Numbered from the stretch's first letter, positions 5,951 through 32,454 are shown. The stretch: DNA of 64,000 bases from an uncultured delta proteobacterium (GCA_963798485.1 CAWCTR010000002.1:1-64000), one strand, 5' to 3'. A program made the numbers and translations. The notes: generated from the sequence alone by a model not told the origin.

Positions 5951-5979
5951 GTTGTTGTACCTATACTGTTTCCTGATTT

Positions 5980-6483
5980 TCACTTCAATGCCGGAAACTT
6001 GAAGATCATGGGGGTGCATGCACCTTTCGTGATAACCTTTAGGACACAATCAAGTTTCTTACCCGGTGTAATGTCATTCTTTCGAATGAACTCGGGGTCA
6101 GGATAAGACGAATCGGGAAGAAGGAGAACAAAATATCGAGACTCCACGTGAACAAAGGTCTCTTGAATCTTATTCTCCGGATAAAATGAATATTTTACTT
6201 CATATGACCCATCAGGCTTCTTTATGCTTGTTGAAGCACTGCCAAACTCTATCTTCTGAACAGATATTACCTCGGCCTTGCCTTTGTAGTCTTTGTACTC
6301 ACAAGGGCCGCCAACCTTTGCAGATGAGTCCTTTTGGATATTTATGTCAGAGGAATGTACTTGACAGCCGAATCCTAAGGTCAGCAGGAAAACAGTATAA
6401 AGGGCTACGAGCTGTTTATGAGGAAAAGTACTAAGACAATATTCGTTTGTGATTGGCTTTATCATTGTACTATATGTCGGCAT
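5980..6483 (-). CDS. Hypothetical exported protein or lipoprotein
   Basis: Hydrophobic stretch ending LGFGC; Cys motifs VGGPCEY and GACTP; start uncertain. Confidence 0.6.
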   Translation of the reverse strand: MPTYSTMIKPITNEYCLSTFPHKQLVALYTVFLLTLGFGCQVHSSDINIQKDSSAKVGGPCEYKDYKGKAEVISVQKIEFGSASTSIKKPDGSYEVKYSFYPENKIQETFVHVESRYFVLLLPDSSYPDPEFIRKNDITPGKKLDCVLKVITKGACTPMIFKFPALK

Positions 6484-15213: not shown

Positions 15214-15867
15214 TTATTTCTGAACACCAGCCTTTTTGTAATACTCATCCTTTTTTACCATCTCTCTGATCCCCTTCAGTGATTTGAAAGGTATATCCAC
15301 AGCCATGAAATTTACAAGCGAAACAGGTATATTCCCTCCAAGATCGGATCTATTCGTGAAGGCCACGGTCGTTTTATTTTTATTAATCCTTGTAAGAACA
15401 TAACCCCCACCGATATCCAACATACGGACATAATCTTTATTCCGCGGCACTATACCGTCAGAGTCCTTGATGTAGTTGAGCGAGATGGTATGTTCAACTT
15501 TTTCCGGGGAATCATAATTTAAGGTATAAAATACCACATCCCTGTCCGCCACAGGCCAGCCGGGGCTGATGACCAAATAGACGACTGAATTATTTTTTTC
15601 ATCCCTTTTGATCAACCGGCTTTCCTTGCAGTTTGGAAACCACTTGGTGTATGATGGGAGGTCTTTAAGGACCTCAAGAACGACCTCCCAGGGAGCATCA
15701 ACATCGCAGACTCCTTTGAAGATAGCAAAATCTTTACCTTGAGGATCTTTCATTGTGTATACCTTTATTCCACCCGACTCTTTAGCAAGTTTCCATTGGT
15801 CTTCAGCATGTACATCGATGCAGAGGAGAAAGACCATTGCCATGAGAAATACTACTGTTTTTTTCAT
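15214..15867 (-). CDS. Secreted START (lipid-binding) domain protein
   Basis: Signal peptide MKKTVVFLMAMVFLLCIDVHA; WKLAKESGGIKVY, WPVADRD, DLGGNIP. Confidence 0.85.
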   Translation of the reverse strand: MKKTVVFLMAMVFLLCIDVHAEDQWKLAKESGGIKVYTMKDPQGKDFAIFKGVCDVDAPWEVVLEVLKDLPSYTKWFPNCKESRLIKRDEKNNSVVYLVISPGWPVADRDVVFYTLNYDSPEKVEHTISLNYIKDSDGIVPRNKDYVRMLDIGGGYVLTRINKNKTTVAFTNRSDLGGNIPVSLVNFMAVDIPFKSLKGIREMVKKDEYYKKAGVQK

Positions 15868-16262: not shown

Positions 16263-16318
16263 TTGACTTAAAATTTATTCAGCTTATATTAACACTGTTC
16301 ACTGAACGGCGTTAATAT
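16263..16318 (+). promoter_or_regulatory. Sigma70-like promoter with overlapping palindromic operator
   Basis: TTGACT-16-TATATT; 33-bp imperfect palindrome ATATTAACACTGTTCACTGAACGGCGTTAATAT at 16286-16318. Confidence 0.6.
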
Positions 16319-16344: not shown

Positions 16345-16995
16345 ATGCCAAAGGCTGCCTGGACCCGGGATAAGATAAACAACACCAAGGAAAAGATCCT
16401 CGATGTGGCCCTTGCGCTGATTATCGAAGAAGGATTCAATAAGCTGAGCATGCGCAAAATAGCATCGCGGCTTGGTATCACAGCAGCAAATATTTATAAC
16501 TACTTTTCCAGCAAGGACGAGATCAATCTCATGATCAGGATCAGGGGATTTGAGATGCTCTTTTCCATGCTCTCAAAGGAATCAGGTAAGAAAACCGCTC
16601 TTACAAACAAAATAAAGGCCCTGGTCTGGGCCTATGTCAATTTCGGCATCACCTACCCAGGCTATTATGACCTCATGTTCAACCTCCACACGCCCAAGTA
16701 TATCGACTACATAGGCACCGCGCTGGAACCTGTGGCAGCCTTTGAGAAGGCAACTGCCATGAAAAACTTCCATCTCAGCGCCGGCATCATCAAAGAGCTG
16801 ATGGGTGCGGGAGATAATCATGAAGCCCTGATCCGCGACATCAACATCCAGTTGTGGTCCGACCTGCACGGCATCATCAGCCTTTTCAACAGCCATGTCC
16901 TTGCCGAGGTTGATGAAAACAGCAAAGATGCCCTCCAGAGAAGGGTCGATAATCTTATTGAACGGCTTACCACAGTGAAACACGCATTCACATGA
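16345..16995 (+). CDS. TetR/AcrR family transcriptional regulator
   Basis: HTH LSMRKIASRLGITAANIYNYFSSKDEI; WSDLHG C-terminal motif. Confidence 0.93.
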   Translation: MPKAAWTRDKINNTKEKILDVALALIIEEGFNKLSMRKIASRLGITAANIYNYFSSKDEINLMIRIRGFEMLFSMLSKESGKKTALTNKIKALVWAYVNFGITYPGYYDLMFNLHTPKYIDYIGTALEPVAAFEKATAMKNFHLSAGIIKELMGAGDNHEALIRDINIQLWSDLHGIISLFNSHVLAEVDENSKDALQRRVDNLIERLTTVKHAFT

Positions 16996-17024
16996 CATAA
17001 ATCCATACCTTAGGGGGGTGTACC

Positions 17025-20021
17025 ATGATGTTAGAGAAAGCCGGACAGGAACACGTCAGGAAGACATCCACCAATATCATGATCCACATGCTGCTTCGCC
17101 TCATGTCAGCCGGTTACAACCTGTGGGGCCCTTTGAATGCCTATTTGAAAAGCGACATGGGGTGGATCAATTTTTCGCTGGGCATACGAACGGAAAACGA
17201 TTCCGTTACGGCGGGCATCATCTTTCATGAAGGTACTGTTACGGTGAAAGGTTCCATCCCCGAAAAGGCCGATGTGATTCTGCACTTCAGCACGGACAAG
17301 GCAGTAAAAAAACTGCTTTCCGCCACACCCACGGAGCAGATCTTCATGATGCTCAAGAGCGAGCTCAGGTTCGAGGGCAACGCCTCGTACCTCAATCTGT
17401 TCTTCTTCCTCCTGTCCGTGCTCATCAACAAGAAGCAGAAAACCCTCATGGAAAAAGAGAGGGCAACTGATAAGAAAAACCTTTTAAAGGAATCGCCTAT
17501 AGCGAGGACCGATCTGAGCAACGAGATCCGTGCGCGTAGCGCGTACGGCATGAAGGCCGAGTCCGTTGATCCGGGTGTAAGTTATCTCAAGGAGCCCTAC
17601 CTGTCCATGTACTCACTGAAAGACTTCCCCCGGGTAAAGGAATTTCTGGATATTCACCTGACCTTAAGGCCCGAGGTCTGCCACGAGCTGCCCAAGCTCA
17701 TCACTGACTGGCACAAGGCCTTTGGCTTTGAAACGGACCGTGATGGCAAGCCCTGGGTCCCCATTACAAGAAAGGCCCTTGCCTTCAAGAACTTCCTGGA
17801 AAACAAGAAACCCATTATACGGGAAAACGACCTCATCGCCGGCACCACGACCACCAAGGACATCGGCGTGGTGGTATATCCCGAAGGCCATGGAACCATG
17901 ATCTGGTCCGAGCTGCTCACCCTGCCCTACCGGACGCTCAACCCGGCAGACCTCTCGGAAGAAACCATGAAGATCCTGCACCATGAGGTCTTCCCCTACT
18001 GGGCAAACCGGAACTTCAAGGAGTGGGTGCGTGATAAATTTGGCAATCCCCTATGCCAGAAGATCGACGAGCGCTTTGCCGTGTACTTCAACTGGAAGCA
18101 GGCCACCATATCCCACACCATCCCCGACTTTCCCAAGATCATGGGGCTGGGCACCAAGGGCATGATGGAAGAGATCCGCTCAGAACTGGCTTCCGGGGCT
18201 TGCGACGAAGAAAAGGGGGCAACACTTAATGCTATGATCCTCTGCCTTGAAGGACTCACAATCTATTCGAAGAACTTGGCAAAACAGGCATTAAGCAATG
18301 CCGGGGCGCAAACCGATCCCGCACGCAGGATGGAGCTGATGAAGCTTGCCGAAATCTGCTCTCAGGTGGTGGAAAACCCTGCCCGGACCCTGGACGAAGC
18401 GGTGAACGCCGTGTGGATCACCTGGGTTGCCCTCCACCAGGAGAGCACCAATGCCGGGCTCTCGCTGGGAAGGCTCGACCAATGGTTCCAGCCCTACTTT
18501 GCAGCCGACATGTCCAAGCTGACCACCGATGCAGAGCGTGACGAATACATCCGGCACGCCATCGAGCTTATCGGGTGTTTTTATATGCGCTGCACCGACC
18601 ATCTGCCGCTGACACCCGACCTGGCCAACTTTTACTTCGGCGGCAGCTCCTCGGACCAGGCCATCACCTTGGGTGGCGTTACCCCTGAGGGCGAAGATGC
18701 CGTGTGCGACATGACCTACATCTTCCTCAAGGTGACAGAGATGCTCAGCATCCGCGACCCCAATGTGAATGCACGCTTCCACCCCGGCATCAACAGCGAC
18801 ACCTATTTGAAGCGGCTCTGCGAGGTGAACCTCATCACCGCCGCCACCCCGTCCATGCACAATGACGAGGTGGTAATGGGCTCTTTGAAGAAATTCAACT
18901 ACGACATCAAAGACCTGCGCAACTGGTCGGCAACCGGCTGCGTTGAGCCGACGCTCTCGTGCAAACACATCGGCCACACCAACATGCAGATGATGAACAT
19001 GGTGGCTGCCCTGGAGATGGCCATGAATAACGGCTTGCACCCCGTGATGAACTGGAAGCTTGGGCCTGATACCGGCAGGATAGAAAACGGTTCGTTCAAA
19101 ACATTCGATGACTTCTTCGATGCCTTCACCACACAGTTCGCCTTCATCATCGACCAGTCCATCGAGTACAACCATATGCTTGCCCGGGCCCACCAGGAGC
19201 TGCGCCCTACCCCGCTGCTCTCTTCGCTCATCGGCGGCTGCATCGGCAAAGGAAAGGATGTCACCAAAGGGGGTGCGGTGTACAACAGCTCGGGTGCAGC
19301 CATTATCGGACTGGCGGATGTGACGGATTCCCTCATGGTCATCAAGAAGCTCGTGTTCGAAGAAAAAAAGGTAACCTTTGAAGAGCTGAAAAGGGCAGTG
19401 GATACCAATTTCAAGAATAATCCCGCCCTCTATGCTTTGGTGACCAAGAAGGTGCCCCTGTTCGGCTCCGGCAGCGATGAGGCCGTTGCCATGGCCAACC
19501 GTGTTACCAAGTGGGCCCATGACCATTACTACGGCCTGGAGCATTACCGGGGAGGGAAATATACCGTGGGCTTCTGGTCCATGTCCAACCATGTGATCTT
19601 CGGGAACCTCACCGGCGCCCTGCCGTCAGGGCGGCTTGCAGGCAAACCCTTCACACCCGGGCTCACCCCCCAGCCCTGCGCGTCGAGGAACCTGCTGGAC
19701 AATATAAAGGACGTGGCCAGGCTGGATGCGGCCAACATCACCAACAACATCGCCTTCAATGTCAAGGTGGTCCCGTCGGCCCATGACACCCGCGAGAAGA
19801 CGGTCAATGACATGTTCTCCTATGCCAAGACCTACTTCCAGCTGGGCGGCATGCAGATGCAGATGAATGTTGTAACAACGGAAACGCTCCGGGACGCCAT
19901 GGCCCACCCCGAGAACTACCGGAACCTGCTGGTGCGCATATCCGGGTATAACGCCTATTTCGTCACACTCAACAGGGATATGCAGCTTGAGCTCATCGAA
20001 CGTGCAGAGTATGGGATATGA
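17025..20021 (+). CDS. Glycyl radical enzyme (PFL superfamily, eliminase-type motif) with N-terminal SCP2-like extension
   Basis: Cys loop ATGCVEP, Gly loop LVRISGYNAYF, GRLDQ; 998 aa with ~150-200 extra N-terminal residues. Confidence 0.92.
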   Translation: MMLEKAGQEHVRKTSTNIMIHMLLRLMSAGYNLWGPLNAYLKSDMGWINFSLGIRTENDSVTAGIIFHEGTVTVKGSIPEKADVILHFSTDKAVKKLLSATPTEQIFMMLKSELRFEGNASYLNLFFFLLSVLINKKQKTLMEKERATDKKNLLKESPIARTDLSNEIRARSAYGMKAESVDPGVSYLKEPYLSMYSLKDFPRVKEFLDIHLTLRPEVCHELPKLITDWHKAFGFETDRDGKPWVPITRKALAFKNFLENKKPIIRENDLIAGTTTTKDIGVVVYPEGHGTMIWSELLTLPYRTLNPADLSEETMKILHHEVFPYWANRNFKEWVRDKFGNPLCQKIDERFAVYFNWKQATISHTIPDFPKIMGLGTKGMMEEIRSELASGACDEEKGATLNAMILCLEGLTIYSKNLAKQALSNAGAQTDPARRMELMKLAEICSQVVENPARTLDEAVNAVWITWVALHQESTNAGLSLGRLDQWFQPYFAADMSKLTTDAERDEYIRHAIELIGCFYMRCTDHLPLTPDLANFYFGGSSSDQAITLGGVTPEGEDAVCDMTYIFLKVTEMLSIRDPNVNARFHPGINSDTYLKRLCEVNLITAATPSMHNDEVVMGSLKKFNYDIKDLRNWSATGCVEPTLSCKHIGHTNMQMMNMVAALEMAMNNGLHPVMNWKLGPDTGRIENGSFKTFDDFFDAFTTQFAFIIDQSIEYNHMLARAHQELRPTPLLSSLIGGCIGKGKDVTKGGAVYNSSGAAIIGLADVTDSLMVIKKLVFEEKKVTFEELKRAVDTNFKNNPALYALVTKKVPLFGSGSDEAVAMANRVTKWAHDHYYGLEHYRGGKYTVGFWSMSNHVIFGNLTGALPSGRLAGKPFTPGLTPQPCASRNLLDNIKDVARLDAANITNNIAFNVKVVPSAHDTREKTVNDMFSYAKTYFQLGGMQMQMNVVTTETLRDAMAHPENYRNLLVRISGYNAYFVTLNRDMQLELIERAEYGI

Positions 20022-20026
20022 CAATA

Positions 20027-20126
20027 CAGTATTCAGTAGTCAGTATTCAGTATCCAGGATTAGAAAAACTGGATTAAGGATATTTACCATGATTCTGACT
20101 ACTGGATCCTGGATACTGGATACTGA
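20027..20126. repeat. Inverted heptamer repeat array (CAGTAT-like units) able to form a long hairpin
   Basis: cagtatt cagtagt cagtatt cagtatc caggatt ... ctgactactggatcctggatactggatactga. Confidence 0.8.
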
Positions 20127-20129
20127 GTT

Positions 20130-21044
20130 ATGACCCCGCTCATCCTTGAGATAAAGGGAAACAGCCTTGATGACGGCCCGGGCATACGCACTGTGGTGTT
20201 CTTCAAAGGGTGCCCGCTTTCCTGTGTCTGGTGCCACAACCCGGAGAGCAAGGTCCCCGGTCTCGAGATATCCTTCGATGAGAAGGACTGCATCGGGTGC
20301 GACACCTGCCTGGATGTCTGCAAGGAAAAGGCCCTTTCACGGAAGAATCCGCATTTCATTGACCGCAGCCGTTGCAGCCTGTGCCTTGACTGCACGGATG
20401 CCTGCCCGTCCGGCGCCCTGTCACGGGTGGGCCTTGAGATGTCTACTGATGACATTGTGAAAAAGGTCCTCTCGGATAAACCATTTTTTGACAACTCCGG
20501 AGGTGGTGTTACCCTGTCCGGCGGCGAGCCCGCCATGTTCATGGATTACACGTCAGATCTCCTGAGGAAGCTCAAAGATGCAGGCATTCACACCCTGATG
20601 GAGACCTGCGGCCTGTTCAACTTCGATGCATTCGAAAAGAAGGTCCTGCCCTATGTCGATGCGATCTATTTTGATATCAAACTCTTTGACGCACAAGATC
20701 ATCATCGGTACTGCGGCATGCCCAATGATTCGATCCTGAAAAACTTTGAGAGGCTTCTTGGTGAAGCTTCCGGGGATAATAAGGTGGTCCTTCCCAGGAT
20801 ACCGCTGATCCCGGGCATTACGGATACCGAGTCCAACCTCAATGCCATTGCGGTCTTCCTCAAGGGCCACGGGGTGCACAGGGCAGACATCCTTGCCTAC
20901 AATCCGCTCTGGTTTGAGAAGTGCAGCAAGATCGGCCTTGATACCCCCTTCCAAACAGACAATGCCAAGAAAAACTGGATCAGTAAAGAGCGATTGCAGA
21001 GGGCAAAGGAGATATTCCTGATTAATGGCATATGCATGGCATGA
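20130..21044 (+). CDS. Glycyl-radical enzyme activating protein (radical SAM with two extra [4Fe-4S] motifs)
   Basis: DDGPGIRTVVFFKGCPLSCVWCHNPES, CIGCDTCLDVC, CSLCLDCTDACP, SGGEP. Confidence 0.95.
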   Translation: MTPLILEIKGNSLDDGPGIRTVVFFKGCPLSCVWCHNPESKVPGLEISFDEKDCIGCDTCLDVCKEKALSRKNPHFIDRSRCSLCLDCTDACPSGALSRVGLEMSTDDIVKKVLSDKPFFDNSGGGVTLSGGEPAMFMDYTSDLLRKLKDAGIHTLMETCGLFNFDAFEKKVLPYVDAIYFDIKLFDAQDHHRYCGMPNDSILKNFERLLGEASGDNKVVLPRIPLIPGITDTESNLNAIAVFLKGHGVHRADILAYNPLWFEKCSKIGLDTPFQTDNAKKNWISKERLQRAKEIFLINGICMA

Positions 21045-21085: not shown

Positions 21086-21946
21086 ATGATGCATGGGGGA
21101 GCTATGAAAGACTTCAGCAACAAACTCGTTTATATTACCGGCGGGTCCAGCGGTATAGGGCTTGAGACAGCCCGTCTGTTGTCATCGATGGGGGCCAATG
21201 TCGCCATATTCGCCCGGAACAAAGACAGGCTCGACCAGGCAAGGCAAGATATCGAAATACACAGGCGCTCTCCTGACCAGAAGATTTGTGTCATGCAGGT
21301 CGATGTGGCAGACAATGACGATGTCCAAGGAAAGATGAAGGAAGCGATAATTCAATTCGGCATACCTGATATCGTTATCACCAGCGCAGGTGTCGGCCAG
21401 GCAGCTCTTTTCGAGAATATCTCCCACCAGGCCTTCGATGCACTTATGAAGATCAATGTGTATGGGACACGGAACATTATTGCCGCCCTGCTTCCATCCA
21501 TGAAGGACAGGGGCGGACAGATCGTGATCATATCTTCCGCAGCTGGGCTCATGGGCATGTTCGGGTACACCTCATACGCAACATCAAAGTATGCACTGGT
21601 GGGCCTTGCCGAGTGCCTCAGGAGTGAGCTCAAGCTCTATAACATTGCAGTTACACTGGTTTGCCCGCCCGAAGTGGATACGCCGTTTCTGATAAATGAA
21701 GCGGGCATCCCCCCCGAGGCCAGGGCTTTAAAAAACTTCGCAGGCACCCTGAAACCCGGCCCGGTGGCCAGGACAATAATCAAGGGCATAGGAAAAAAGA
21801 AATTCCTGGTTGTCCCAGGACTGCTCGCAAAATTGCTGTTCCTCAATCACCGCCTCACAAACGGGCTTACCACCAGGTTCAGTTCGGATTTTATTGTGAA
21901 GCTGGTGCGGATGATGCGAAGACCTGGGCAAGATTGTCCTCATTAA
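21086..21946 (+). CDS. SDR oxidoreductase, 3-ketodihydrosphingosine reductase (KDSR)-like
   Basis: ITGGSSGIG, YATSK, CPPEVDTP; probable start MKDFSNK at 21104. Confidence 0.85.
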   Translation: MMHGGAMKDFSNKLVYITGGSSGIGLETARLLSSMGANVAIFARNKDRLDQARQDIEIHRRSPDQKICVMQVDVADNDDVQGKMKEAIIQFGIPDIVITSAGVGQAALFENISHQAFDALMKINVYGTRNIIAALLPSMKDRGGQIVIISSAAGLMGMFGYTSYATSKYALVGLAECLRSELKLYNIAVTLVCPPEVDTPFLINEAGIPPEARALKNFAGTLKPGPVARTIIKGIGKKKFLVVPGLLAKLLFLNHRLTNGLTTRFSSDFIVKLVRMMRRPGQDCPH

Positions 21947-22068
21947 AGATACAACACGGTATTTTGATCTTAATGTTGTGAACTTAATGTCGCATTTATT
22001 GACAGGGTTCCTTCATATGCACTAAACTCACACATGGCTTTATCCATATAATGCGCAAGGGAGGGAGT

Positions 22069-22881
22069 ATGAACCTGGTATATGAGAAGGCAGGACACAT
22101 CGCCAAGATAGGGCTTAACCGTCCACAGCAACTCAACGCCCTGGACCCGGGCCTCCTGCTCGAACTGCACAATACCTGGATAGACATCAATGAAGATGCG
22201 AACATACGTGTTGCCGTGCTTTACTCGGCCCTGCCGAATATCTTCTGCGCGGGCATGGACCTGAAGACCGCCATACCCATACTCACTGGCGCAAGGCCCC
22301 CTGAGAATGAGGCAGAGAAGTGGATCGTGGCCGGGTGGGACGGCAAGGGGGTCGGCGAGGCCATGCTCAAGATCAGCTTCGTAAATAAACCGATCATCGC
22401 AGCCATCCATGGCTACTGCCTCACGGGCGGTTTCGAGATGGTCATGGGTGCAGATCTGCGGGTAGCGTCTGAAGACGCCGTATTCCAGATGCGGGAGGCA
22501 AGCCTCGGCATCATGCCCACAGGCGGCGGCAACATCTTTCTTCCAAGGCATGTGGGTACCTGCAGGGCACTTGAGATCCTCCTCACGGCAGGCAACTTCG
22601 ACGCCAAGACTATGTACGAGTGGGGATTCCTCAACAGAGTAGTGCCCAAAGAGAAGCTCATGGACACCACCATGGAGCTTGCCGAGAAGATAGCTGCAAA
22701 CGGTCCCCTTGCCACCCAGGGCATCATCAGGCTCAACCGCGAGATGCGCATGAGGGAATTCAAAGACGTCTTCATCAAAGAGGTAGAGATCGGTATGCCC
22801 ATCTTTGCCAGCGAGGATGCCCGCGAGGGGGTACGCGCCCAGAAAGAGAAAAGAAAGCCCAATTTCCCGGGAAAGTATTAG
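22069..22881 (+). CDS. Enoyl-CoA hydratase/isomerase family protein
   Basis: FCAGMDL, IHGYCLTGGFE, DAREG. Confidence 0.92.
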   Translation: MNLVYEKAGHIAKIGLNRPQQLNALDPGLLLELHNTWIDINEDANIRVAVLYSALPNIFCAGMDLKTAIPILTGARPPENEAEKWIVAGWDGKGVGEAMLKISFVNKPIIAAIHGYCLTGGFEMVMGADLRVASEDAVFQMREASLGIMPTGGGNIFLPRHVGTCRALEILLTAGNFDAKTMYEWGFLNRVVPKEKLMDTTMELAEKIAANGPLATQGIIRLNREMRMREFKDVFIKEVEIGMPIFASEDAREGVRAQKEKRKPNFPGKY

Positions 22882-22883
22882 CC

Positions 22884-24377
22884 GTGCCTGGCATAAACGG
22901 ATTGGGGCACCTCTTTGAGCCGGGAAGCATCGCGTTCATCGGCGCCTCCACGGATATTTTCAAGTGGGGGTTTAATATCCTCCACACCCTTTTCAAGCGT
23001 GGCTTTTCAGGAGAGGTCTATCCAGTCAACCCCAAGGGTGGGGAATGGTTCGGCAGGAAGGTGTACGCATCGCTGAGTGAGATCGATAAGACAATCGATC
23101 TTGCCGTCATCGTGGTCGCTGATAACCTTGTACTGGAAACGGTGAAGCAGTGTGTCGAGAAGAGGATCCCAGCCGGCATCATCATAACCGCAGGCTTTTC
23201 CGAGACCGGTCCCGAGGGGGCCCGGATGGAGCGTGAGATAGTCGATATCGCGAGGGAGGGCGCTATGAGGCTCGTGGGCCCCAACACCATGGGGGTATTC
23301 AGCGCGTATCCTTCCATCATGCAGGCCCTCATGGGTTCCATGCCGCTCATACCCGGGAACATCGGCCTCATCACACAGAGCGGCAACCTCGGATCTTCCA
23401 TCTCCTACCGCTTTCTCCGCAGGGGCATGGGCATCAGCCGACTCATCAGCTCGGGCAACGAGGCGGACCTCACCCTGGAAGACTTCCTCGAATACCTGGA
23501 GAATGACGGCAAGACCAGGATCATCTGCCTCTACGTTGAGGGCTTGCGGAGGCCCAGGCCTTTCTTCGAGGCTGCCAGGAGGATATCGCCCGTAAAACCA
23601 ATCATCCTCATCAAGGGCGGCCGCACCGAGAAAGGTGCCGCTGCGGCCATGTCACACACGGGTGCAATGGCGGGCGACGACAACCTCTTCACCTCTATGT
23701 GCCGCCAGGCAGGCATCATCAGGGTGGATACCATGGACGAGATGGTCGATGTGGCCGGCATGCTCATGCAGCCCATTTCTTCCGGCAGACGGGTGGCCAT
23801 CATCACACCGGGCGGCGGGTGGGGCGTTCTGGCCACTGACCTGTGCATACAAAATGGGCTTTCCATCAACCCCCTGGATCAATCACTGGTTGAATCCCTT
23901 AATACGAAACTGCCCCGCTACTGGAGCAGAGGCAATCCCATAGACTTGGTGGCGCCTCAGCGGGTGAGCGTGATTGCGGACACCATTACCGAGCTCATGG
24001 AGCATGCCTCCGCAGATGCGGTCCTACTCATGGGGCTCGGATACATGAGCCTGCGCGCCTACGGCTGGCTGAGGTCAAGCACCGTGCCCACCGAGGCGGT
24101 GAAACTCTCGGCCGAGCTCATGATCAAGGAGGAGACCAGGCTCTTCTCTCTCATCGTGGAGCTCATTGATAAATATAAGAGGCCCATAATCCCGGTCTTC
24201 GACATTATGAGTTTTGACCTTCAGATGGACAACAACCCGGTGAAGTTTCTGGACACACATGCCATCATGCCCTATCCGGCCCCGGACCGGGCCGTATTCG
24301 CCCTGGCAAAGGCAGTAAAATACAAAAAATGGGTTGAAGAGGAAACCCATGCTCAAGTGCAGACCACGCAACCCTGA
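22884..24377 (+). CDS. ADP-forming acyl-CoA synthetase alpha subunit (CoA-binding protein)
   Basis: IGAS, YPVNP, GPNTMG, QSGN, SHTGAMAG, NPIDL; GTG start inferred. Confidence 0.88.
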   Translation: MPGINGLGHLFEPGSIAFIGASTDIFKWGFNILHTLFKRGFSGEVYPVNPKGGEWFGRKVYASLSEIDKTIDLAVIVVADNLVLETVKQCVEKRIPAGIIITAGFSETGPEGARMEREIVDIAREGAMRLVGPNTMGVFSAYPSIMQALMGSMPLIPGNIGLITQSGNLGSSISYRFLRRGMGISRLISSGNEADLTLEDFLEYLENDGKTRIICLYVEGLRRPRPFFEAARRISPVKPIILIKGGRTEKGAAAAMSHTGAMAGDDNLFTSMCRQAGIIRVDTMDEMVDVAGMLMQPISSGRRVAIITPGGGWGVLATDLCIQNGLSINPLDQSLVESLNTKLPRYWSRGNPIDLVAPQRVSVIADTITELMEHASADAVLLMGLGYMSLRAYGWLRSSTVPTEAVKLSAELMIKEETRLFSLIVELIDKYKRPIIPVFDIMSFDLQMDNNPVKFLDTHAIMPYPAPDRAVFALAKAVKYKKWVEEETHAQVQTTQP

Positions 24378-24396: not shown

Positions 24397-25455
24397 TTAT
24401 CTTCTCCTCCCTCCAGGGCCAATGCCTAAGGGCCTTCCTATGGAGTCGAAGAAGGCCTTGAAGTCCTGGATAGCGCCGTCCGCCTTTTTCACATTGCCCT
24501 TGCCGGGATAGATCTCATAGAGCCTGGCATAGTCCTGGGGTGTGAAAACCGGCATGAAGATGTTCGCACCTGCCTCAAAGGCCTTTTTCCTGCTCGCGCC
24601 ATCCAGCACGCCCAGCGCTGTGGTGGACGGGATGTTGGTGTCCCGGGTCACCAGGCGGATAACGGCCAACATCTTCAGAACGAGGAGGGCATCGCCCGGC
24701 GCATGATTATTCAGCGGTGTCTGCTCATGGGGGATGAAGGGACCGATGCCGATCATGTCCGCCCCAAGCCCCTTGATGAGGAGCACATCGTCTGCAAGGT
24801 CTTCAACCGTCTGTCCCGGAAGTCCGACCATACATCCCATGCCCACCTCGTAATCCAGCTCCCTGAGCCACTTCAGGCACTGTATCCTTTCATCTAAGGT
24901 CCTGCCGGGGCACAGGTTTGCGTAGAGGTCCGGGTTGGCTGTCTCGTGACGCAACAGATAGCGGTCCGCGCCCGCCTCCCGGAAGGCCTTGTAGTCTTCA
25001 TAGGGCCGCTGTCCTATTGACAGGGTGATGGCAAGCCCGGTGTCATCCTTGATGCGTGTGATGATCCGGCACATCCGGTCCCTGTTATAGAGCGGGTCTT
25101 CTCCCGACTGCAGCACGACAGTGCTGCATGCCCGGGATTGGATGGCCTTTGCAAGGCCCAAAATCTCATCATCCTCCATGCGGTACCGCTCGGCCGGAAG
25201 GTTATCGCGCCTGAGTCCGCAATAGAGACAGTTATTCCTGCAGTAATTCGAGAATTCGATAATCCCCCGCAGGAAGACCTCATCACCCACATATTCCTTG
25301 CGGACACGGTCTGCAGCCTGGAACAGTCCCTCCATATCACCGGGGGTGTCAAGCGACAGGAGCTCTATGATCTCATCACGGCTCAAATCAAGGCCCTGCC
25401 CGGCCCGAAGGATCACCCCTGAAGCAGCCTCAGATGTACAGGTCATGCATTCCAT
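24397..25455 (-). CDS. hydE: [FeFe]-hydrogenase H-cluster radical SAM maturase HydE
   Basis: RGIIEFSNYCRNNCLYCGLR, LQSGED, YLLRHET, YEIYPGK; follows hydG. Confidence 0.92.
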   Translation of the reverse strand: MECMTCTSEAASGVILRAGQGLDLSRDEIIELLSLDTPGDMEGLFQAADRVRKEYVGDEVFLRGIIEFSNYCRNNCLYCGLRRDNLPAERYRMEDDEILGLAKAIQSRACSTVVLQSGEDPLYNRDRMCRIITRIKDDTGLAITLSIGQRPYEDYKAFREAGADRYLLRHETANPDLYANLCPGRTLDERIQCLKWLRELDYEVGMGCMVGLPGQTVEDLADDVLLIKGLGADMIGIGPFIPHEQTPLNNHAPGDALLVLKMLAVIRLVTRDTNIPSTTALGVLDGASRKKAFEAGANIFMPVFTPQDYARLYEIYPGKGNVKKADGAIQDFKAFFDSIGRPLGIGPGGRRR

Positions 25456-26824
25456 GTTCGATCTTCTTCAGCCGGTCTTCAAGCAGGTCCTTAACACTGG
25501 TATCTTTGGTCTCCGCCAGGAGCCGGTCTATAAGCTGAATGCCGGCCTGTCTGGTATGCCCCGATGCGTAATCCTCGAGATATTCCTTGAAGGTCAGGAT
25601 GGCGTTCGTCCGGCAGAATTTCTGTATAAGCCCGGGTTTAGCCATATCCATGAAGTCGGCCCCTACCCTACCGAGCCGGTAGCAGGCAGTGCAGAAGCTC
25701 GGGATATGTCCCTTGGTGGTGATGTCATAGATCACCTCATCCAAGGTCCTTGTGTCGCCCAGGTTGAACTGGGCCGCCCTGAAGGCTTCACCGTCATCGG
25801 CCTTGTAACCGCCAGGGTTGGTACGGGAGCCGGCGCTGATCTGGGATATCCCCAGATCGAACACCTCACTGCGCAGCTCGGGACGCTCCCTGGTGGAAAG
25901 GATCATCCCGGTATACGGTACCGCGAGCCTGATGACAGCGACCAGTTTCTTGAACTCATGGTCGGAAACGGGCATGGGGGGCTTAATGGCAGCAGGCGCA
26001 TTCAATGCCGGCTCCAGCCTGGGTATGGATATGGTGTGGGGTCCGACGCCGTAGACCTCCTCAAGGTGCATGGCGTGGTGCAGCAGGCCCATCACCTCAT
26101 ACTTGTAGTCATATAATCCGAAGAGCGCCCCGATGCCCACGTCATTGATGCCGCCTTCCATGGCCCTGTCCTGGGCGGTCACCCTCCAGACAAAGTCGGC
26201 CTTGGGCCCGCTCGGGTGCACCTCCTTATACGTTGCATGATGATAGGTCTCCTGGAAGAGCACATAGGTCCCGATCTTTGCCGCCTTGAGCCTCCCAAAG
26301 TCTTCCACGCTCTGGGGGGCTATCTCCACATTGATGCGGCGTATCTCTCCACCATGCTCCGTAGTGGTGGCATAGGCCGTCTCGATGGCCTCCAGGAAAT
26401 AATCCATTGAGCTCTTTTTATGGTTTTCACCGCAGAGCATAAGGAGCCTTTTGTGCCCTTCCCTCTCCAGCATCCTTACCTCGTCGGCGATCTCATCCAT
26501 GGTAAGGGCCCTGCGCTTCAGCTCCTTGTTGTCTTTCCGGAAACCGCAGTACAGGCAGTTGTTTGAGCAGTAGTTGGAGATGTACAAAGGGGCGAAGAGC
26601 ACAAGGCGGTTGCCGTAGATGCCCCGCTTGATAAACCGTGCGGTTGTAAAGATCTCGTCTATGAGATCATGGTCCTCACACTGGAGTAATGTTGCCGCTT
26701 CCTCAGGGGAGAGTCCATGGAGATCCCTTGCCTTTTCAATGATCTCCAGAACCCTGCCTTTTTCGGGATTCTTTGCATGCGCCAGCGTTTCTTCTATACG
26801 TGTATCGCTAATGAAATCCTGCAT
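25430..26824 (-). CDS. hydG: [FeFe]-hydrogenase H-cluster radical SAM maturase HydG
   Basis: FAPLYISNYCSNNCLYC, GVGPHTIS, PSFCTACYR. Confidence 0.96.
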   Translation of the reverse strand: MQDFISDTRIEETLAHAKNPEKGRVLEIIEKARDLHGLSPEEAATLLQCEDHDLIDEIFTTARFIKRGIYGNRLVLFAPLYISNYCSNNCLYCGFRKDNKELKRRALTMDEIADEVRMLEREGHKRLLMLCGENHKKSSMDYFLEAIETAYATTTEHGGEIRRINVEIAPQSVEDFGRLKAAKIGTYVLFQETYHHATYKEVHPSGPKADFVWRVTAQDRAMEGGINDVGIGALFGLYDYKYEVMGLLHHAMHLEEVYGVGPHTISIPRLEPALNAPAAIKPPMPVSDHEFKKLVAVIRLAVPYTGMILSTRERPELRSEVFDLGISQISAGSRTNPGGYKADDGEAFRAAQFNLGDTRTLDEVIYDITTKGHIPSFCTACYRLGRVGADFMDMAKPGLIQKFCRTNAILTFKEYLEDYASGHTRQAGIQLIDRLLAETKDTSVKDLLEDRLKKIEHGMHDLYI

Positions 26825-26835
26825 GGCTATCTCCT

Positions 26836-27093
26836 TTAAGCCTTTGTAAGGACCGACTTGACTTCCACATCCGGTAGAGAACCGAGCTTTCCGGTAAGCG
26901 CACCGATGTCGTCAGTGGTGCCATGAATGATGAGCGCAATAATACTAATCCCCTTCGGTTCGTAAGGAATACCCATGCGGCCTATTATGCTGTCGCCATA
27001 TTGAGTGATTATTTCATTCACTCTCATCGCCGATTCTTTTCTCTTATGGATGATAATGCTTACTACTCCGATTCTTCGAGATTTTTCTTCCAT
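26836..27093 (-). CDS. TM1266-family iron-only hydrogenase system putative regulator
   Basis: IIGRMGIP and ALTGKLGSL; lies between hydA and hydG. Confidence 0.88.
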   Translation of the reverse strand: MEEKSRRIGVVSIIIHKRKESAMRVNEIITQYGDSIIGRMGIPYEPKGISIIALIIHGTTDDIGALTGKLGSLPDVEVKSVLTKA

Positions 27094-27105
27094 GTGTCTT
27101 CTCCT

Positions 27106-27148
27106 AAAATAAAAGGGCCTTTACCCGCGAGATAGGGTAAAGGCCCTT
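27106..27148 (-). terminator. Rho-independent terminator or stem-loop after hydA
   Basis: 14-bp stem aagggcctttaccc/gggtaaaggccctt followed by T-rich tract on minus strand. Confidence 0.75.
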
Positions 27149-27225
27149 GATACGTCCTTCAATTACCCTCAAGGTCAGTTCTTGAAAACCTCCCTCGCAG
27201 GCTCGTTGCCGTTATATGTGTTCGC

Positions 27226-28983
27226 TTACTTGATGTTCACCTTCTTGTGGGGCATGTTCGTCCCCCGTTTTATATAATGGGTGTGCAGCAGCTCATGGGA
27301 TTTGTGCCCAAGGGGCTTCTCAAGGAAGATCTCATAGATCCTCTTGACCGATGGGTTCTCGTGAGACTGGCGGAACTTCTGCACGGCTCCGTCGTCCTTG
27401 TACAGGGCCGCTGCCCTGTTCAGTCTCTTCAAGTTGCTGGGTGCGATGGGCTGACCGCCTCCGGATACACAGCCTCCCGGACAGCACATGACCTCGATGA
27501 AGGCGTAGTCTGCCGTTCCCTCGCGGATCTTGTCCATGAGTTTGCGGGCATTGCCGAGCCCATGTGCCACAGCGACCTTGACCTTCCCGAGCGGACCCAC
27601 TTCCACTGTCGCCTCCTTGACGCCGTCGAGTCCACGAACAGGAGTAATATCGAGGCTCTCGAGGTTGGTGCCGGTGACGACCGCGTACACGGTCCGTAGT
27701 GCCGCCTCCATGACACCGCCGGTAGCGCCGAAGATTGTTGCTGCACCGGTGTACTCGCCCAACGGGTTGTCATAATCGCCCTCAGGCAGGTTCACGAAGT
27801 CGATGCCTGCCTGCTTGATCATGCGGGCAAGCTCACGGGTGGTAAGCACGTAGTCCACGTCCTGGTACCCGCTGTCATTCATCTCTTCGCGCGCGCATTC
27901 GTACTTCTTTGCCGTGCAAGGCATGATGGAGACCGACACGATGTCCTTGGGATCGACGCCCGACTGCTGGGCATAGTAGGATTTGATCAGGGCACCCATC
28001 ATCTGCTGGGGTGACTTGCAGGTGGAGAGGTTATCCACCAGGTCCGGGTAAAAATGCTCACAGAACTTGATCCAGCCCGGTGAGCACGACGTGATCATGG
28101 GCAGCTTGCCGCCCTCTTTTACCCTCTGCAGCAGCTCGTTGCCTTCCTCGATGATGGTGAGGTCAGCCGAGAAGTTGGTGTCGAACACCTTGTCGAATCC
28201 CAGACGGCGGAGAGCCGTCAGCATTTTCCCGGTAACCAGGGTGCCCACGGGCATCCCGAATTCCTCGCCAAGGGCTGCACGGATGGCAGGTGCCTCCTGG
28301 ACAACCACGTGCTTGGTTGGGTCCTGAAGTGCGGCCCAGACCGCTTCGGTGTCGTCTTTCTCGTACAGAGCGCCCACCGGACATGCAAGCACGCACTGGC
28401 CGCACATGGTGCAGTTGGTCTCGATCAGCGGCATGTCGAACGGAGGGCCGATAAAGACCTTGTCGCCCCTGAATGAGGGCTGCAGAATATTGGCGGTCTG
28501 AATGCTTTCGCACACGGTAACGCAGCGGTAGCACTTGATACATTTGCTGGGATCGCGCACAATGGCCGGGCTGCTCGTGTCGAGCTTTTTCTTTTTGTCC
28601 TTCGGGTACTCGAAGCGTACGGTGCGCAGACCAACCGCCTCGGCTACATTCTGGAGCTCGCAGTTGCCGTTACGGATGCAAATGTTGCAGTCCGTGGGGT
28701 GGTTCGCCAGGAGCAGCTCGACATTGAGCTTCCGTGCATGCCTTACACGCTCTGTGGTGGTCCTCACTATCATGCCTTCTGCCACCGGGAACACGCACGA
28801 AGCAACCAGGTTCCTCTGGCCTTCAACCTCGCACAGGCAGACCCGGCAGGCGCCCGGTGTATGACCTATTTCGGTCCAGGCGCACAACGTGGGGATATTG
28901 ATACCCACGGTCTTGGCAGCCTCTAAAATGGTGCTGCCCTCTTTCACGCTCACCTTTATGTTATCAATTGTCAGATTAACCAT
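27226..28983 (-). CDS. hydA: [FeFe]-hydrogenase catalytic subunit (group A, HydA/HndD type)
   Basis: H-cluster motifs TSCSPGW, MPCTAKKYE, EVMCCPGGCVSGGGQP; N-terminal [2Fe-2S], HxxxC and 2x[4Fe-4S] domains. Confidence 0.96.
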   Translation of the reverse strand: MVNLTIDNIKVSVKEGSTILEAAKTVGINIPTLCAWTEIGHTPGACRVCLCEVEGQRNLVASCVFPVAEGMIVRTTTERVRHARKLNVELLLANHPTDCNICIRNGNCELQNVAEAVGLRTVRFEYPKDKKKKLDTSSPAIVRDPSKCIKCYRCVTVCESIQTANILQPSFRGDKVFIGPPFDMPLIETNCTMCGQCVLACPVGALYEKDDTEAVWAALQDPTKHVVVQEAPAIRAALGEEFGMPVGTLVTGKMLTALRRLGFDKVFDTNFSADLTIIEEGNELLQRVKEGGKLPMITSCSPGWIKFCEHFYPDLVDNLSTCKSPQQMMGALIKSYYAQQSGVDPKDIVSVSIMPCTAKKYECAREEMNDSGYQDVDYVLTTRELARMIKQAGIDFVNLPEGDYDNPLGEYTGAATIFGATGGVMEAALRTVYAVVTGTNLESLDITPVRGLDGVKEATVEVGPLGKVKVAVAHGLGNARKLMDKIREGTADYAFIEVMCCPGGCVSGGGQPIAPSNLKRLNRAAALYKDDGAVQKFRQSHENPSVKRIYEIFLEKPLGHKSHELLHTHYIKRGTNMPHKKVNIK

Positions 28984-29007
28984 TGCTATCTCTCCTGTCG
29001 TTTCACC

Positions 29008-32000
29008 CTAGAGCTCTGCGTCGCAGCGCAGGCACCTGCAGGACTCTTTGTAGGCAGTCTTCTTGGAATAACCTAGTTCCACCTCTTTGAAGCTGATCAT
29101 GCGCTCCGATTTCTTGAGCTCGGGCATCTTGGCCTTGGGGCTCTCGATGACCTCTTCATCCACCTCGAAGGGGATCTCGATGACTTCGTCTTCAGGTATC
29201 CTGTAGGCGGGCTCGTTGTTCTTGGCGCGGATGAGACCGTCAACGTCTGAGGCAGTCTTGTGGCCCATGGCAATGGCCTCCACAACGGTGGCCGGACCGC
29301 TTGCCGCATCGCCTGCTATGAATACGCCCTCCGCCGTGGTCTTGTTCTTTGCCTTGCCTGTGGCCTTTATTCCGCCCCACTTGTCCAGGTTCACATCCGA
29401 ACCCGCTGCGATGAATGATGCATCGGTGCCCTGGGAGATTGCCGGGACTATGGTGTCTATGGAGAGCACGAACTCGCTGCCTGCAATGGCTACCGGTTTG
29501 CGCCTGCCGGAACGGTCGAACTCGCCCAGCTTCATGCGCTGGCACTCGACGCCGGCGAGTTTGTCGCCCTTGCCGATGAGTTTGGTCGGTGCGACCAGGT
29601 ACATGATCTTGACGCCTTCATGCTCGGCAGCCACAATCTCGTTCTCCCATGCGGGCATGTCTTTGCGCTCGCGGCGGTAGAGGATGGTGACGTCCTTGGC
29701 GCCAAGGCGGATAGCCGTGCGGGCCGCGTCGATGGCGGAGTTGCCGCCGCCTACGATAGCCACCTTCGAACCAATGCTCACCTTTTTGCCCAGGTTGACC
29801 TCGCGGAGGAATTCCACCGCACCCCAGACACCGGAGAGTTCTTCGCCCTCGATGCCCAGCCTTGTGCTCTTGTGCGCACCGACGGTGATGACGGTTATGT
29901 CGAAGTCCTTTCGGACCTGATCAAAGCTGATGTCCTTGCCTACCCTGGTATTGGTCTTGATATCCACACCCAGTGCGCGGATGTCGGCGACTTCCTGCTC
30001 CACGATGTCCCTGGGCATGCGGTATTCGGGGATGGCATAACGCATCATGCCGCCGGCAAAGGGCAGTTCCTCGAACACGGTTACCTTGTAGCCCCTTAAG
30101 GCCAGATCCTGTGCAGCAGTGAGTCCTGCAGGCCCTGCCCCGATAACCGCGATCTTCTCTTTGCGGGTGACCGGGGCTGCATCGACCTTGGGCCTCTTTG
30201 CGTTGTCCGATATATAGCGCTTAAGCCATGCAATGGCCATGGGTTCATCGAGCTGGCCCCTGCGGCACTTGTCGGCGCAGAACTGCGGGCAGACCCTGCC
30301 GCACACGCCGGGGAACGGATTGGTCCGCTTCATAACCTTGAATGCATCTGCGAGTCTGCCTGCCCTGATGAGTGCCATGTATGAGGGCACGTCCATCTCG
30401 ATGGGGCATGCATGCTGGCAGGGTGACTTGAACAGCTTCGAGCAGACAACAGCAGGACACTTCTTGTCGTAGATATGGGCCTCGTACTCGTGCCTGAAAT
30501 ACTTTATGGTCGACAGGACCGGGTTCGGGGCCGTCTGGCCGAGACCGCACAGGGCGGAGTCTTTAATAACGGCTGCCAGGTCTTCCAAGAGCTCGATGTC
30601 GCCTGCCTTGCCCTCGCCGCCGCATATCCTCTGGAGAATCTCCAGCATGCGCTTGGTGCCTTCACGGCACGGTGTGCACTTGCCGCAGGACTCTTCCTGG
30701 CAGAACTCCATGAAGAACTTGGCCGTGTCCACCATGCAGGTGTCCTCGTCCATGACGATAAGACCACCGGAACCCATGATGGCGCCGAGTTTGATGATTT
30801 CTTCGTAATCGGTGGGGGTGTTCAATGCCTCGGCCGGGATACAACCGCCGGACGGACCGCCGAGCTGGGCGGCCTTGTACTGTTTGCCGTTCCTGATGCC
30901 GCCGCCGATATCAAAGATAATCTCGCCGATTGCCGTGCCCATGGGGACTTCAACCAGACCGACATTGTTGACCGCGCCGGTAAGGGCGAACACCTTGGTG
31001 CCCTTAGAGCGCTCGGTACCCATGGAGGCATACCACTCGCCACCGTTTAGGATGATCTGCGAGATGTTTGCAAAGGTCTCAACGTTATTCAAGACCGAGG
31101 GCTTCTGCCACAGGCCCTTGCTCGCCGGGAACGGGGGACGGGGCCGCGGCATGCCTCGCTTGCCTTCGATGGAGTTCATCAGGGCCGTTTCTTCGCCGCA
31201 CACAAACGCGCCGGCGCCCTGGTAGACATGGATGTTCAGGCTGTAGCCGGAACCCAGGATGTTCTGACCGAGCAGCCCGTACTCCTTGGCCTGGTCGATG
31301 GCGATGGTGAGCCTCTTGATGGCCAGAGGATACTCGGCCCGGCAATAGATGTAGCCTTCATTGGCGCCGATGGCGTAGCCTCCGATGATCATGCCTTCGA
31401 GCACTGCATGGGGGTCGGCCTCAAGGACGGAGCGGTCCATGAATGCACCCGGGTCGCCCTCGTCCGCGTTGCACAGGATATATTTGACGTCGCTCACAGC
31501 CTTGCTTGCAAAAGACCACTTCATACCGGTGGGGAACCCGCCGCCCCCACGGCCGCGGAGACCGGATTTCTTCACCTCGTCGATGACCTGGTCCCTCTTC
31601 ATCTCGGTCAGGGCCTTGGCTGCCGCCATATAGCCGTCGCGGGCGATGTACTCGTCGATCTTTTCCGCGTCGATCAATCCTCTGTTCTTAAGGACAATGA
31701 GCTTCTGCTTTCCGAAGAACGGGATATCCATCATGTGGGGAATGGGCGCTTCCGTTGTCGGCTCTTTGTACATGAGCCTCTTGACCGGCCTGCCCTTGAC
31801 GATGTGTTCCTCGATGATCTCTGGGACATCTTGGGCCTTCACGTACTGGTAGAACGTCCCTTCCGGATATATGACCATAATGGGGCCTGCAGCGCAGAAC
31901 CCGTTACAGCCGGTTTCCACCACGGTTACCTCGTCGGTGAGATTCTTTGCAGCCAGTTCCTGTATAATAGCTCTATGGACTTCTCCACTGCCCGTGGCAT

Positions 32001-32444: not shown

Positions 32445-32454
32445 AGGGCCCCTC

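Follow-up and report, generated by a model that had tools for sequence, protein, structure and literature searches.

A 64,000-nt stretch of DNA from an uncultured delta proteobacterium (GCA_963798485.1 CAWCTR010000002.1:1-64000; this whole stretch is termed the window hereafter) encodes an intact, oxygen-sensitive glycyl radical enzyme (GRE) whose first ~200 residues precede the canonical GRE fold and are predicted to include a lipid-carrier domain of the SCP2 type. The question raised by this locus is what a radical enzyme would do with such a domain, and on which substrate it would act. We regard the domain architecture of the window GRE as new to the GRE superfamily, and its substrate type as probably new as well. 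As for the reaction, we lean toward a radical mechanism that breaks a C-O or C-X bond in the hydroxylated head group of a hydrophobic substrate and yields a carbonyl product. The features on which the argument is built are listed below with the evidence for each.

17025..20021, + strand: SCP2-fused GRE, 998 amino acids (aa) (Pfam, NCBIfam, PDB alignment and family conservation)
17064..17429, + strand: predicted SCP2-fold domain, aa 14-135 (AlphaFold2 model, Foldseek, VIA-align and sub-threshold Pfam SCP2)
17430..17624, + strand: predicted helical/coil linker from the SCP2 domain to the GRE core, aa 136-200 (secondary structure of the AlphaFold2 model)
18114..18116, + strand: His364, aligned with His164 of glycerol dehydratase (GD) (HMMER alignment to 1r8w)
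18936..18950, + strand: Cys loop GCVEP with Cys639 and Glu641, the Cys-x-Glu motif (motif and family conservation)
19935..19949, + strand: Gly loop RISGY with the radical glycine Gly974 (motif and Pfam Gly_radical)
20130..21044, + strand: GRE-activating radical SAM enzyme (activase), 304 aa (TIGR02494 and cysteine motifs)

The GRE gene is an ATG-started open reading frame (ORF), with a G-rich ribosome-binding site located 7-12 nt 5' of the ATG. As an in-frame stop codon lies upstream at 16998, there is no earlier start in this frame. A mis-called start or a chimeric ORF was considered and rejected, since the N-terminus is conserved from end to end in relatives of different phyla. Each catalytic loop occurs once in the protein, GCVEP at aa 638-642 and RISGY at aa 971-975, and both loops were invariant in all of the 37 aligned members of the SCP2-GRE family. 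Pfam assigned aa 219-860 to the PFL-like domain (PF02901; E 7.8e-164) and aa 877-980 to Gly_radical (PF01228; E 5.8e-24). Altogether, the PFL-like barrel, the glycyl radical domain, the two loops and the adjoining activase place the protein in the GRE superfamily. An earlier note on this DNA, made from the sequence alone, had described a 998-aa GRE with the loops at ~18936-18950 and ~19935-19949, and its coordinates match ours exactly. The cognate, ferredoxin-containing activase that it had claimed was also found, with a score of 287.5 bits against TIGR02494 (cut-off, 174.35 bits), the radical SAM motif CPLSCVWC (CX3CX2C) at aa 28 and ferredoxin-type CxxCxxC motifs at aa 54 and 82. The genes for a TetR-family repressor, the GRE, the activase and a short-chain dehydrogenase/reductase (SDR) are separated by 29, 108 and 41 nt, and therefore the operon has no space for a small-subunit gene, in line with the absence of small subunits stated in the same note.

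Solved GREs first align with the query at residues 200-240, leaving ~200 residues ahead of the canonical fold: residue 13 of propanediol dehydratase (PD; 5i2a) corresponds to query residue 202, residue 25 of HypD (6vxc) to 200 and residue 10 of CutC (5a0u) to 203. The N-terminal extension had been put at ~150-200 aa, which agrees with these alignments, and the peptides quoted for it are all in the translation. When 5.8 billion proteins were searched with the GRE, 933 matches were obtained among the 8000 candidates scored; the best 120 of the 933 were 895-1045 aa long and 66-93% identical to the query at 89-100% query coverage, and they bore generic names only (e.g., 'pyruvate formate lyase family protein' and 'formate acetyltransferase'). 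Among the 37 aligned members, the identity to the query was 45-82% in the extension and 66-88% in the whole protein, and G46, W47, T56, G70, P79, T101, P102, M108 and G118 of the extension were invariant. A phmmer search of 1.8 billion representative sequences with residues 1-210 yielded 131 matches, nearly all of which were short pieces or ~1000-aa proteins and some of which were just 27-36% identical to the query in this region; no canonical SCP2 protein was reached by this search. Pfam SCP2 matched 6 of the 37 members at E <= 1, and this weak signal at the sequence level may account for the absence of SCP2 from the database names of the relatives.

The fold of the extension was examined with an AlphaFold2 (AF2) model of residues 1-210 built from the 37-row alignment. 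The model had a mean predicted local distance difference test score (pLDDT) of 77.2, reaching ~90 over residues 20-90, and its elements run in the order of helix-helix, four strands, two helices, one strand and a long helix. In the Foldseek comparison with PDB, the top match was UbiJ-SCP2 (6h6p; E 4.2e-6, target template modelling score 0.68), and all the rows listed down to E 5e-3 were SCP2 proteins or the SCP2 domains of alkylsulfatase and MFE-2. VIA-align, which is independent of Foldseek and was run against 48,161 chains, gave SCP2 folds in all of the top ten rows (Z 8.5-11.9; model residues ~14-135), with human SCP2 (8af2) being the best at Z 11.9 and a root-mean-square deviation of 2.4 A over 109 residues; the rows after these ten had Z of 6.7 or below. 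No solved GRE chain was found among the listed matches of the two comparisons. The SCP2-like N-terminus proposed in the earlier note withstood this check by structure prediction: in the predicted model, residues 14-135 adopt the SCP2 alpha/beta fold. The linker, residues 136-200, is predicted with lower pLDDT to be helical to ~156 and at 163-173 and then coil. The best score in ESM Atlas for residues 1-180 was 0.84, which we treat as a lead only.

UbiJ (6h6p), the alkylsulfatases SdsA1 (2cfu) and Pisa1 (2yhe), and the SCP2-like domain of MFE-2 (1ikt) share the fold of the model (Foldseek E 4e-6 to 9e-4) and the same design, namely a lipid-carrier module joined to a catalytic module. They differ from the window protein in that the identity is 12-19%, and in that the domain of the latter is N-terminal and sits on a radical enzyme. 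The SCP2 domains of these matches are attached to enzymes or complexes that handle hydrophobic substrates. The long form of choline trimethylamine-lyase (9f3w; 1150 aa) is a GRE eliminase that also bears a long N-terminal extension before the conserved core, and its residue 364 corresponds to query residue 202. However, none of the window residues 1-200 aligns with the CutC extension, and the core scored 396 bits against the CutC model, which has a cut-off of 1050 bits. The earlier note had known of no characterized GRE with this architecture, and we found no description of an SCP2-GRE architecture, or of a lipid substrate for a GRE, in the full-text literature, outside which most subscription journals lie. 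In sections 4.1, 4.3 and 5.4-5.7, a June 2026 review (Imrich et al., PMC13450708) mentions neither an SCP2 domain nor a water-insoluble or lipid substrate for a GRE.

Does the catalytic core then belong to any of the characterized GREs? Its scores stayed below the cut-offs of all the NCBIfam models of characterized GREs, with 516.4 bits for TIGR01774, the broad PFL2-3 subfamily of glycerol/1,2-propanediol dehydratase (cut-off, 678.2), 410.2 for HypD (1100), 396.1 for CutC (1050), 374 for HpsG (1000), 370.2 for PRK09983, i.e., PflD (1109), 364.8 for HpfG (1000), 265.6 for IAD (1100), 196.1 for HPAD (1150) and 121 for PFL (994). The three best PDB matches were PD (5i2a; 379.5 bits), PFL2 of Archaeoglobus fulgidus (2f3o; 378.5 bits) and GD (1r8w; 370.8 bits), and lower scores were obtained for MasD (218), TutD (164.5) and PFL (86). 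The features of X-succinate synthases were not seen, as the operon carries no small-subunit gene and the similarity to MasD and TutD is low relative to that to PD. The B12-independent GD and PD, both of which are GRE C-O 1,2-eliminases, share with the window GRE the ten-stranded barrel domains, the Cys-x-Glu motif, a His aligned with GD His164 and a two-ferredoxin activase. On the other hand, the window GRE has ~200 extra N-terminal residues with the predicted SCP2 fold and falls under the TIGR01774 cut-off, and in the HMMER alignment to 1r8w, H281, S282, D447, Y339 and Y640 of GD are all replaced (by A477, G478, N653, D544 and W851, respectively), while C433, E435 and H164 of GD correspond to C639, E641 and H364. 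We take H281, S282 and D447 to be diol-binding residues of GD, in addition to His164; only the last of these is retained in the window GRE as H364. With scores under all the NCBIfam cut-offs and with H281, S282 and D447 not kept, the core probably lies outside the characterized GREs, as had been supposed in the earlier note. PFL2 of A. fulgidus, the second-best PDB match, is likewise uncharacterized but is 776 aa long, has no N-terminal SCP2 domain and possesses other residues in the segment aligned with N476-S480; there has been debate over a link between this protein and the use of long-chain alkanes (PMC13450708 and its reference 186).

The Cys loop of the window GRE reads C639-V-E641 and thus contains Cys-x-Glu, which was invariant in 37 of the 37 aligned members, as was His364. 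The Glu of this motif hydrogen-bonds the substrate in all GRE eliminases and isomerases (Imrich et al., PMC13450708). In GD, Glu435 deprotonates the C1 hydroxyl and His164 protonates the leaving C2 hydroxyl (PMC13450708, section 5.6.1). The GRE isomerases YbiW and PflD (8id7 and 8id0) also have Cys-x-Glu (PMC13450708), but they act on sugar phosphates, bear no SCP2 domain and match the window GRE with 265-311 bits. In the earlier note, GCVEP had been read as a sign of eliminases. This stands insofar as eliminases carry Cys-x-Glu, but isomerases and the decarboxylases HPAD and IAD carry it as well (PMC13450708), and the motif is necessary, not sufficient, for membership in the eliminases and isomerases. 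Similarly, the proposal of a 'new radical lyase class' is only partly retained: the architecture is new and the substrate type is probably new, but 'class' is too strong for a protein that falls in the Cys-x-Glu branch.

The SCP2-GRE fusion is widespread and is conserved at ~1000 aa across phyla. A search of one genome per species retrieved at least 605 stretches matching two family peptides, and at least 576 stretches in reference genomes encode an SCP2-GRE relative; the best 80 of the latter were used for the analysis of gene neighbourhoods. Among the 80 loci, Desulfobacterota include Desulfatibacillum alkenivorans DSM 16219 (L051), a metagenome-assembled genome (MAG) of Desulfosudis oleivorans, and MAGs of Smithella and Syntrophales, and the other taxa comprise Spirochaetota and Leptospirales, Actinomycetes, one Vicinamibacteraceae MAG and one Chloroflexota MAG. 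Residues 1-210 were matched in 24 of the 401 sampled genomes of the phylum to which the window belongs (~6%; the genome of the window counted), corresponding to 18 of the 254 genera, and 23 of the 30 matched places sit in open frames of at least 900 aa. In the two other genomes of the genus to which the window belongs, residues 1-210 were not matched. All of eight distant full-length relatives (37-55% overall identity) possess the N-terminal domain, and six of the eight have both the Cys and Gly loops intact. The other two (P0184 and P0194; ~1000 aa) keep the SCP2 domain and the GRE fold but have lost the catalytic Cys and Glu and show a degenerate Gly loop; judged from their sequences, they are likely catalytically dead paralogues. 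A search of sequencing runs listed no RNA run, and the best DNA run contained 0.39 of the words.

The remaining features of the operon region are as follows.

16286..16318, + strand: palindromic operator-like site, 33 nt, two 16-nt arms with 1 nt between them, 27 nt upstream of the TetR start
16345..16995, + strand: TetR-family repressor, 216 aa (Pfam TetR_N, E 6.1e-15; TetR_C_33, E 1.6e-7)
21086..21946, + strand: classical SDR, 286 aa (Pfam adh_short, E 6e-47)
22051..22881, + strand: enoyl-CoA hydratase/isomerase family protein, 276 aa (Pfam ECH_1, E 4.8e-51)
22884..24377, + strand: ADP-forming acyl-CoA synthetase-like protein (Pfam Succ_CoA_lig and CoA_binding_2)

Having a TetR regulator of its own, together with a conserved operator, is characteristic of a system for the inducible catabolism of hydrophobic compounds. 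The arms of the inverted repeat at 16286-16318 are 88% complementary and are overlapped by promoter-like hexamers at 16263-16290 and 16289-16318, such promoter-like sites being no commoner than in shuffled sequences (7 vs 6.7). A 27-nt pattern derived from the palindrome (up to 4 substitutions allowed) was found in 11 of the 80 loci, in each case ahead of the TetR or GRE gene, and gave 1 hit in the shuffled loci. In 26 of 34 loci, the 13-nt half-site TTAACAnTGTTAA (up to 2 mismatches) is present no more than 250 nt upstream of the TetR start; it is doubled with a distance of 14 nt in 11 of these 34, and was found in none of the 33 control segments taken from inside the GRE gene. Thus, the repressor, the putative operator, the GRE and the activase constitute a unit conserved across phyla.

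The genes near the GRE were surveyed by tblastn of the window proteins against the fetched flanks of the 80 loci and by clustering of the ORFs from 81 sources (the 80 loci plus the window), in which the clusters were named by Pfam; the clustering missed the GRE of L052. As many loci are on short contigs, the counts of neighbours are lower bounds. The activase was found near the GRE in 58 of the 80 loci by tblastn and 52 of the 81 sources by clustering, and a TetR homologue in 40 and 34, respectively. The corresponding numbers were 15 (including weak paralogues) and 10 for the SDR, and 8 and 8 for the ADP-forming ligase. SDR homologues with 44-57% identity adjoin the GRE in L005, L010, L017, L037, L039, L051, L067 and L071. 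The clustering further detected an AMP-forming acyl-CoA synthetase in 11 sources, aldehyde:ferredoxin oxidoreductase in six, and ferredoxin, acyl-CoA dehydrogenase and an extended SDR (epimerase/3-beta-HSD type) in five each. When an operon-like string was defined as genes on the same strand with gaps of < 250 nt, an NAD(P) oxidoreductase (classical SDR, extended SDR or Fe-ADH) was found in 13 of the 80 strings. The top PDB match of the window SDR was the (3R)-hydroxyacyl-CoA dehydrogenase of MFE-2 (2et6; E 2.4e-35), a resemblance that leaves its substrate unfixed. The enoyl-CoA hydratase gene was set aside as a member of the pathway, since its homologue was found near the GRE in just 1 of the 80 loci (tblastn). 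The mechanically called ORF of the ADP-forming ligase begins at GTG 22620 and shares 262 nt with the end of the hydratase gene; its CoA-binding domain begins only at residue 100-103 of this ORF, and the true start is therefore probably GTG 22884 or TTG 22902.

Several observations were made beside these counts. In one Desulfobacterales MAG, a sulfatase gene directly follows the SCP2-GRE gene (L040, 10975-12501, + strand); this is a single case, and alkylsulfatases also have SCP2 domains. The GRE of the Desulfosudis oleivorans MAG is followed by a 614-aa ORF (L039, 10954-12798, + strand) that comprises extended-SDR (epimerase/3-beta-HSD) and classical SDR parts, which are separate genes in L071. 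Divergent from the TetR-GRE operon, the window encodes a START-domain lipid-binding protein with a signal-peptide-like N-terminus (15214-15867, - strand; AGGAGG precedes the likely start, 15867), of which tblastn found no homologue in the flanks of the 80 related loci. Two further GREs of 838 aa and 792 aa lie close together in the same genome (G000, contig C4, ~118.6-125.4 kb; L083 and L081), and both are under all the NCBIfam equivalog cut-offs. The 838-aa GRE, which has an activase and a GntR/FadR-like regulator beside it, shares 69% identity with a second GRE located directly after the SCP2-GRE and activase in the Chloroflexota MAG (L046). Directly downstream of the operon is an [FeFe]-hydrogenase cluster (24397-32961, - strand). 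Two of its genes resemble those of radical SAM maturases (24397-25455 and 25430-26824), and a BATS domain is present in the second. The cluster also encodes the large subunit of the hydrogenase (27226-28983), a 1013-aa protein in which NuoF-like and pyridine-nucleotide-disulphide oxidoreductase domains are fused (29008-32049), and a 2Fe-2S protein of the NuoE-like type (32455-32961). Elsewhere in the window (2528-6049, - strand), BACON and Ig-like repeats are joined to a papain-family cysteine protease domain in a protein of 1173 aa.

We favour, on balance, radical C-O or C-X cleavage in the hydroxylated head group of a hydrophobic substrate because the GRE and its activase are intact, with Cys-x-Glu and His364 present in all of the 37 members, and because the eliminases PD and GD are the best sequence matches, X-succinate synthases and PFL scoring lower. 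The reading also draws on the predicted SCP2 fold, the structural matches of which include domains fused to enzymes for hydrophobic substrates and the fusion of which to the GRE is kept across phyla, on the replacement of H281 and S282 of GD by the small A477 and G478, and on the oxidoreductase, aldehyde oxidoreductase and acyl-CoA neighbours together with a TetR regulator and its conserved operator. The substrate that the earlier note had put forward, hydrophobic and long-chained, is retained at the strength of a proposal, and we infer every chemical step, the binding of lipid to the SCP2 domain and the kind of compound that serves as substrate. The operon would be repressed by TetR, and the SCP2-fold domain may hold or hand over the hydrophobic tail of a lipid-like substrate. 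The adjoining activase would place the radical on Gly974, from which it would move to Cys639. In the polar head of the substrate, the resultant thiyl radical would remove a hydrogen from a carbinol carbon. Glu641 may then deprotonate the hydroxyl to give a ketyl radical, and a group next to it, either a hydroxyl or an alkoxide or possibly another heteroatom, would be expelled with His364 as the putative acid. The product radical would regain a hydrogen from Cys639 to give a hydrophobic aldehyde or ketone, which may be processed by NAD(P)-dependent reductases or dehydrogenases, aldehyde:ferredoxin oxidoreductase and acyl-CoA enzymes.

A number of points weigh against the proposed cleavage of a hydrophobic substrate. 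No substrate, product or activity is on record for any member of the SCP2-GRE family, and the equivalent of His364 is replaced in three of the six catalytically intact distant SCP2-GREs. The decarboxylases HPAD (Cys503/Glu505) and IAD (Glu502) have Cys-x-Glu too (PMC13450708). The SCP2 assignment depends on a predicted model from a 37-sequence alignment, not on a solved structure; the Pfam SCP2 match (PF02036) to residues 62-124, with E 0.021 and 15.6 bits, is under the cut-off of 21.3 bits; and in the full-length model, pLDDT is < 50 in the active-site loops 341-362, 531-544, 851-882 and 960-998. The SCP2 domain might also sit at the dimer interface, since the N-terminal helices of GREs form this interface (PMC13450708). 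As for the neighbourhood, only the activase and TetR occur in most loci, and the counts of aldehyde oxidoreductase, acyl-CoA dehydrogenase and ligase are not independent, because they derive mostly from the related syntenic loci L068, L072, L074, L077 and L078.

Some of these points lend themselves to a different account, in which the GRE acts on a small polar substrate as the known eliminases do, and the SCP2 domain serves as a tether to membranes or lipid bodies, in regulation by a lipid ligand, in oligomerization or in docking of the activase. We consider this account unlikely. H281, S282 and D447, the diol-binding residues of GD, are replaced by A, G and N, the scores are far below all the models of small-substrate GREs, and the enzyme-fused SCP2 domains among the structural matches serve hydrophobic substrates, to judge in part from the entry titles. 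Nevertheless, the neighbourhood is variable with no fixed lipid pathway, and P0184 and P0194 keep the SCP2 domain without the catalytic Cys and Glu, implying that the domain can matter without catalysis; the characterized Cys-x-Glu GREs treated in sections 5.6 and 5.7 of the review all act on small polar molecules, and the N-terminus of GREs is at the dimer interface (PMC13450708). An improbable alternative is that the enzyme is biosynthetic rather than a catabolic lyase, modifying the membrane lipids of its own host or making a hydrophobic product through a step in ether-lipid, hydrocarbon or polyol-lipid synthesis. UbiJ, the top SCP2 match, belongs to a biosynthetic lipid pathway, and the START-domain lipid-binding protein adjoining the operon is apparently secreted. 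In addition, the family is found in Desulfatibacillum and other Desulfobacterota, some of which make alkylglycerol ether lipids. The distribution is, however, patchy for such a role, with matches in 24 of the 401 genomes of the phylum and in neither of the two other genomes of the genus, and TetR with its operator and the neighbours for aldehyde oxidation and acyl-CoA activation fit inducible catabolism better.

Two further accounts change the chemistry rather than the role. The decarboxylation of a hydrophobic carboxylic acid, with Cys-x-Glu used as in HPAD and IAD, would share the motif of these enzymes (PMC13450708) and would suit the acyl-CoA and fatty-acid genes near the GRE in some loci. 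We hold it to be still less probable than a biosynthetic role: IAD and HPAD score 265.6 and 196.1 bits against 410 and 396 for HypD and CutC, the His aligned with the acid of GD is conserved, and the known GRE decarboxylases require an aryl group for radical stabilization (PMC13450708). The least probable of all in our judgement is hydrocarbon activation of a kind functionally akin to that by X-succinate synthases, which control a hydrophobic channel through accessory subunits (PMC13450708), a part that the fused SCP2 domain would play in place of channel-gating small subunits. Desulfatibacillum alkenivorans DSM 16219, Desulfosudis oleivorans and the Smithella MAGs are indeed degraders of alkanes or alkenes or their relatives, but the family is common in Spirochaetota, Actinomycetes and MAGs of Acidobacteriota as well. 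Besides, the similarity to MasD and TutD is weak in comparison with that to PD, no succinate-processing genes were seen in the operon-like strings, and Cys-x-Glu and the His are features of enzymes for heterolytic cleavage (PMC13450708).

Radical cleavage at the head of a hydrophobic substrate can be narrowed down to a more specific, and doubtful, proposal. The SCP2-GRE family may be the first of the GREs to act on lipids, as a lyase that would operate without oxygen on water-insoluble lipids and split their ether or vicinal-diol head to give a fatty aldehyde or ketone and an alcohol. Candidates for the substrate of such a lyase are alkylglycerol or archaeal-type ether lipids, long-chain diols, polyol lipids such as hopanepolyols, and man-made alkyl ethoxylates. 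Ether cleavage by the Cys-x-Glu branch has a chemical precedent, because YbiW and PflD cleave the C-O bond of a ring ether via a ketyl radical (PMC13450708, section 5.7).

Whole clades of GREs are still without validation (PMC13450708), and the lipid-carrier domain conserved in the SCP2-GREs suggests radical chemistry on substrates that do not dissolve in water. The SCP2-GRE family is experimentally tractable in a cultured host, Desulfatibacillum alkenivorans DSM 16219, and its own repressor and putative operator could serve as a ligand sensor with which to search for the substrate. Were this an ether or polyol lipid, the SCP2-GRE would close a gap in the anaerobic carbon cycling of recalcitrant membrane lipids. 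Should the proposal of a lipid lyase be true, the SCP2-GRE would be the anaerobic counterpart of the oxygen-dependent cleavage of ether lipids and an answer to how ether and polyol lipids are degraded in anoxic sediments and peat.

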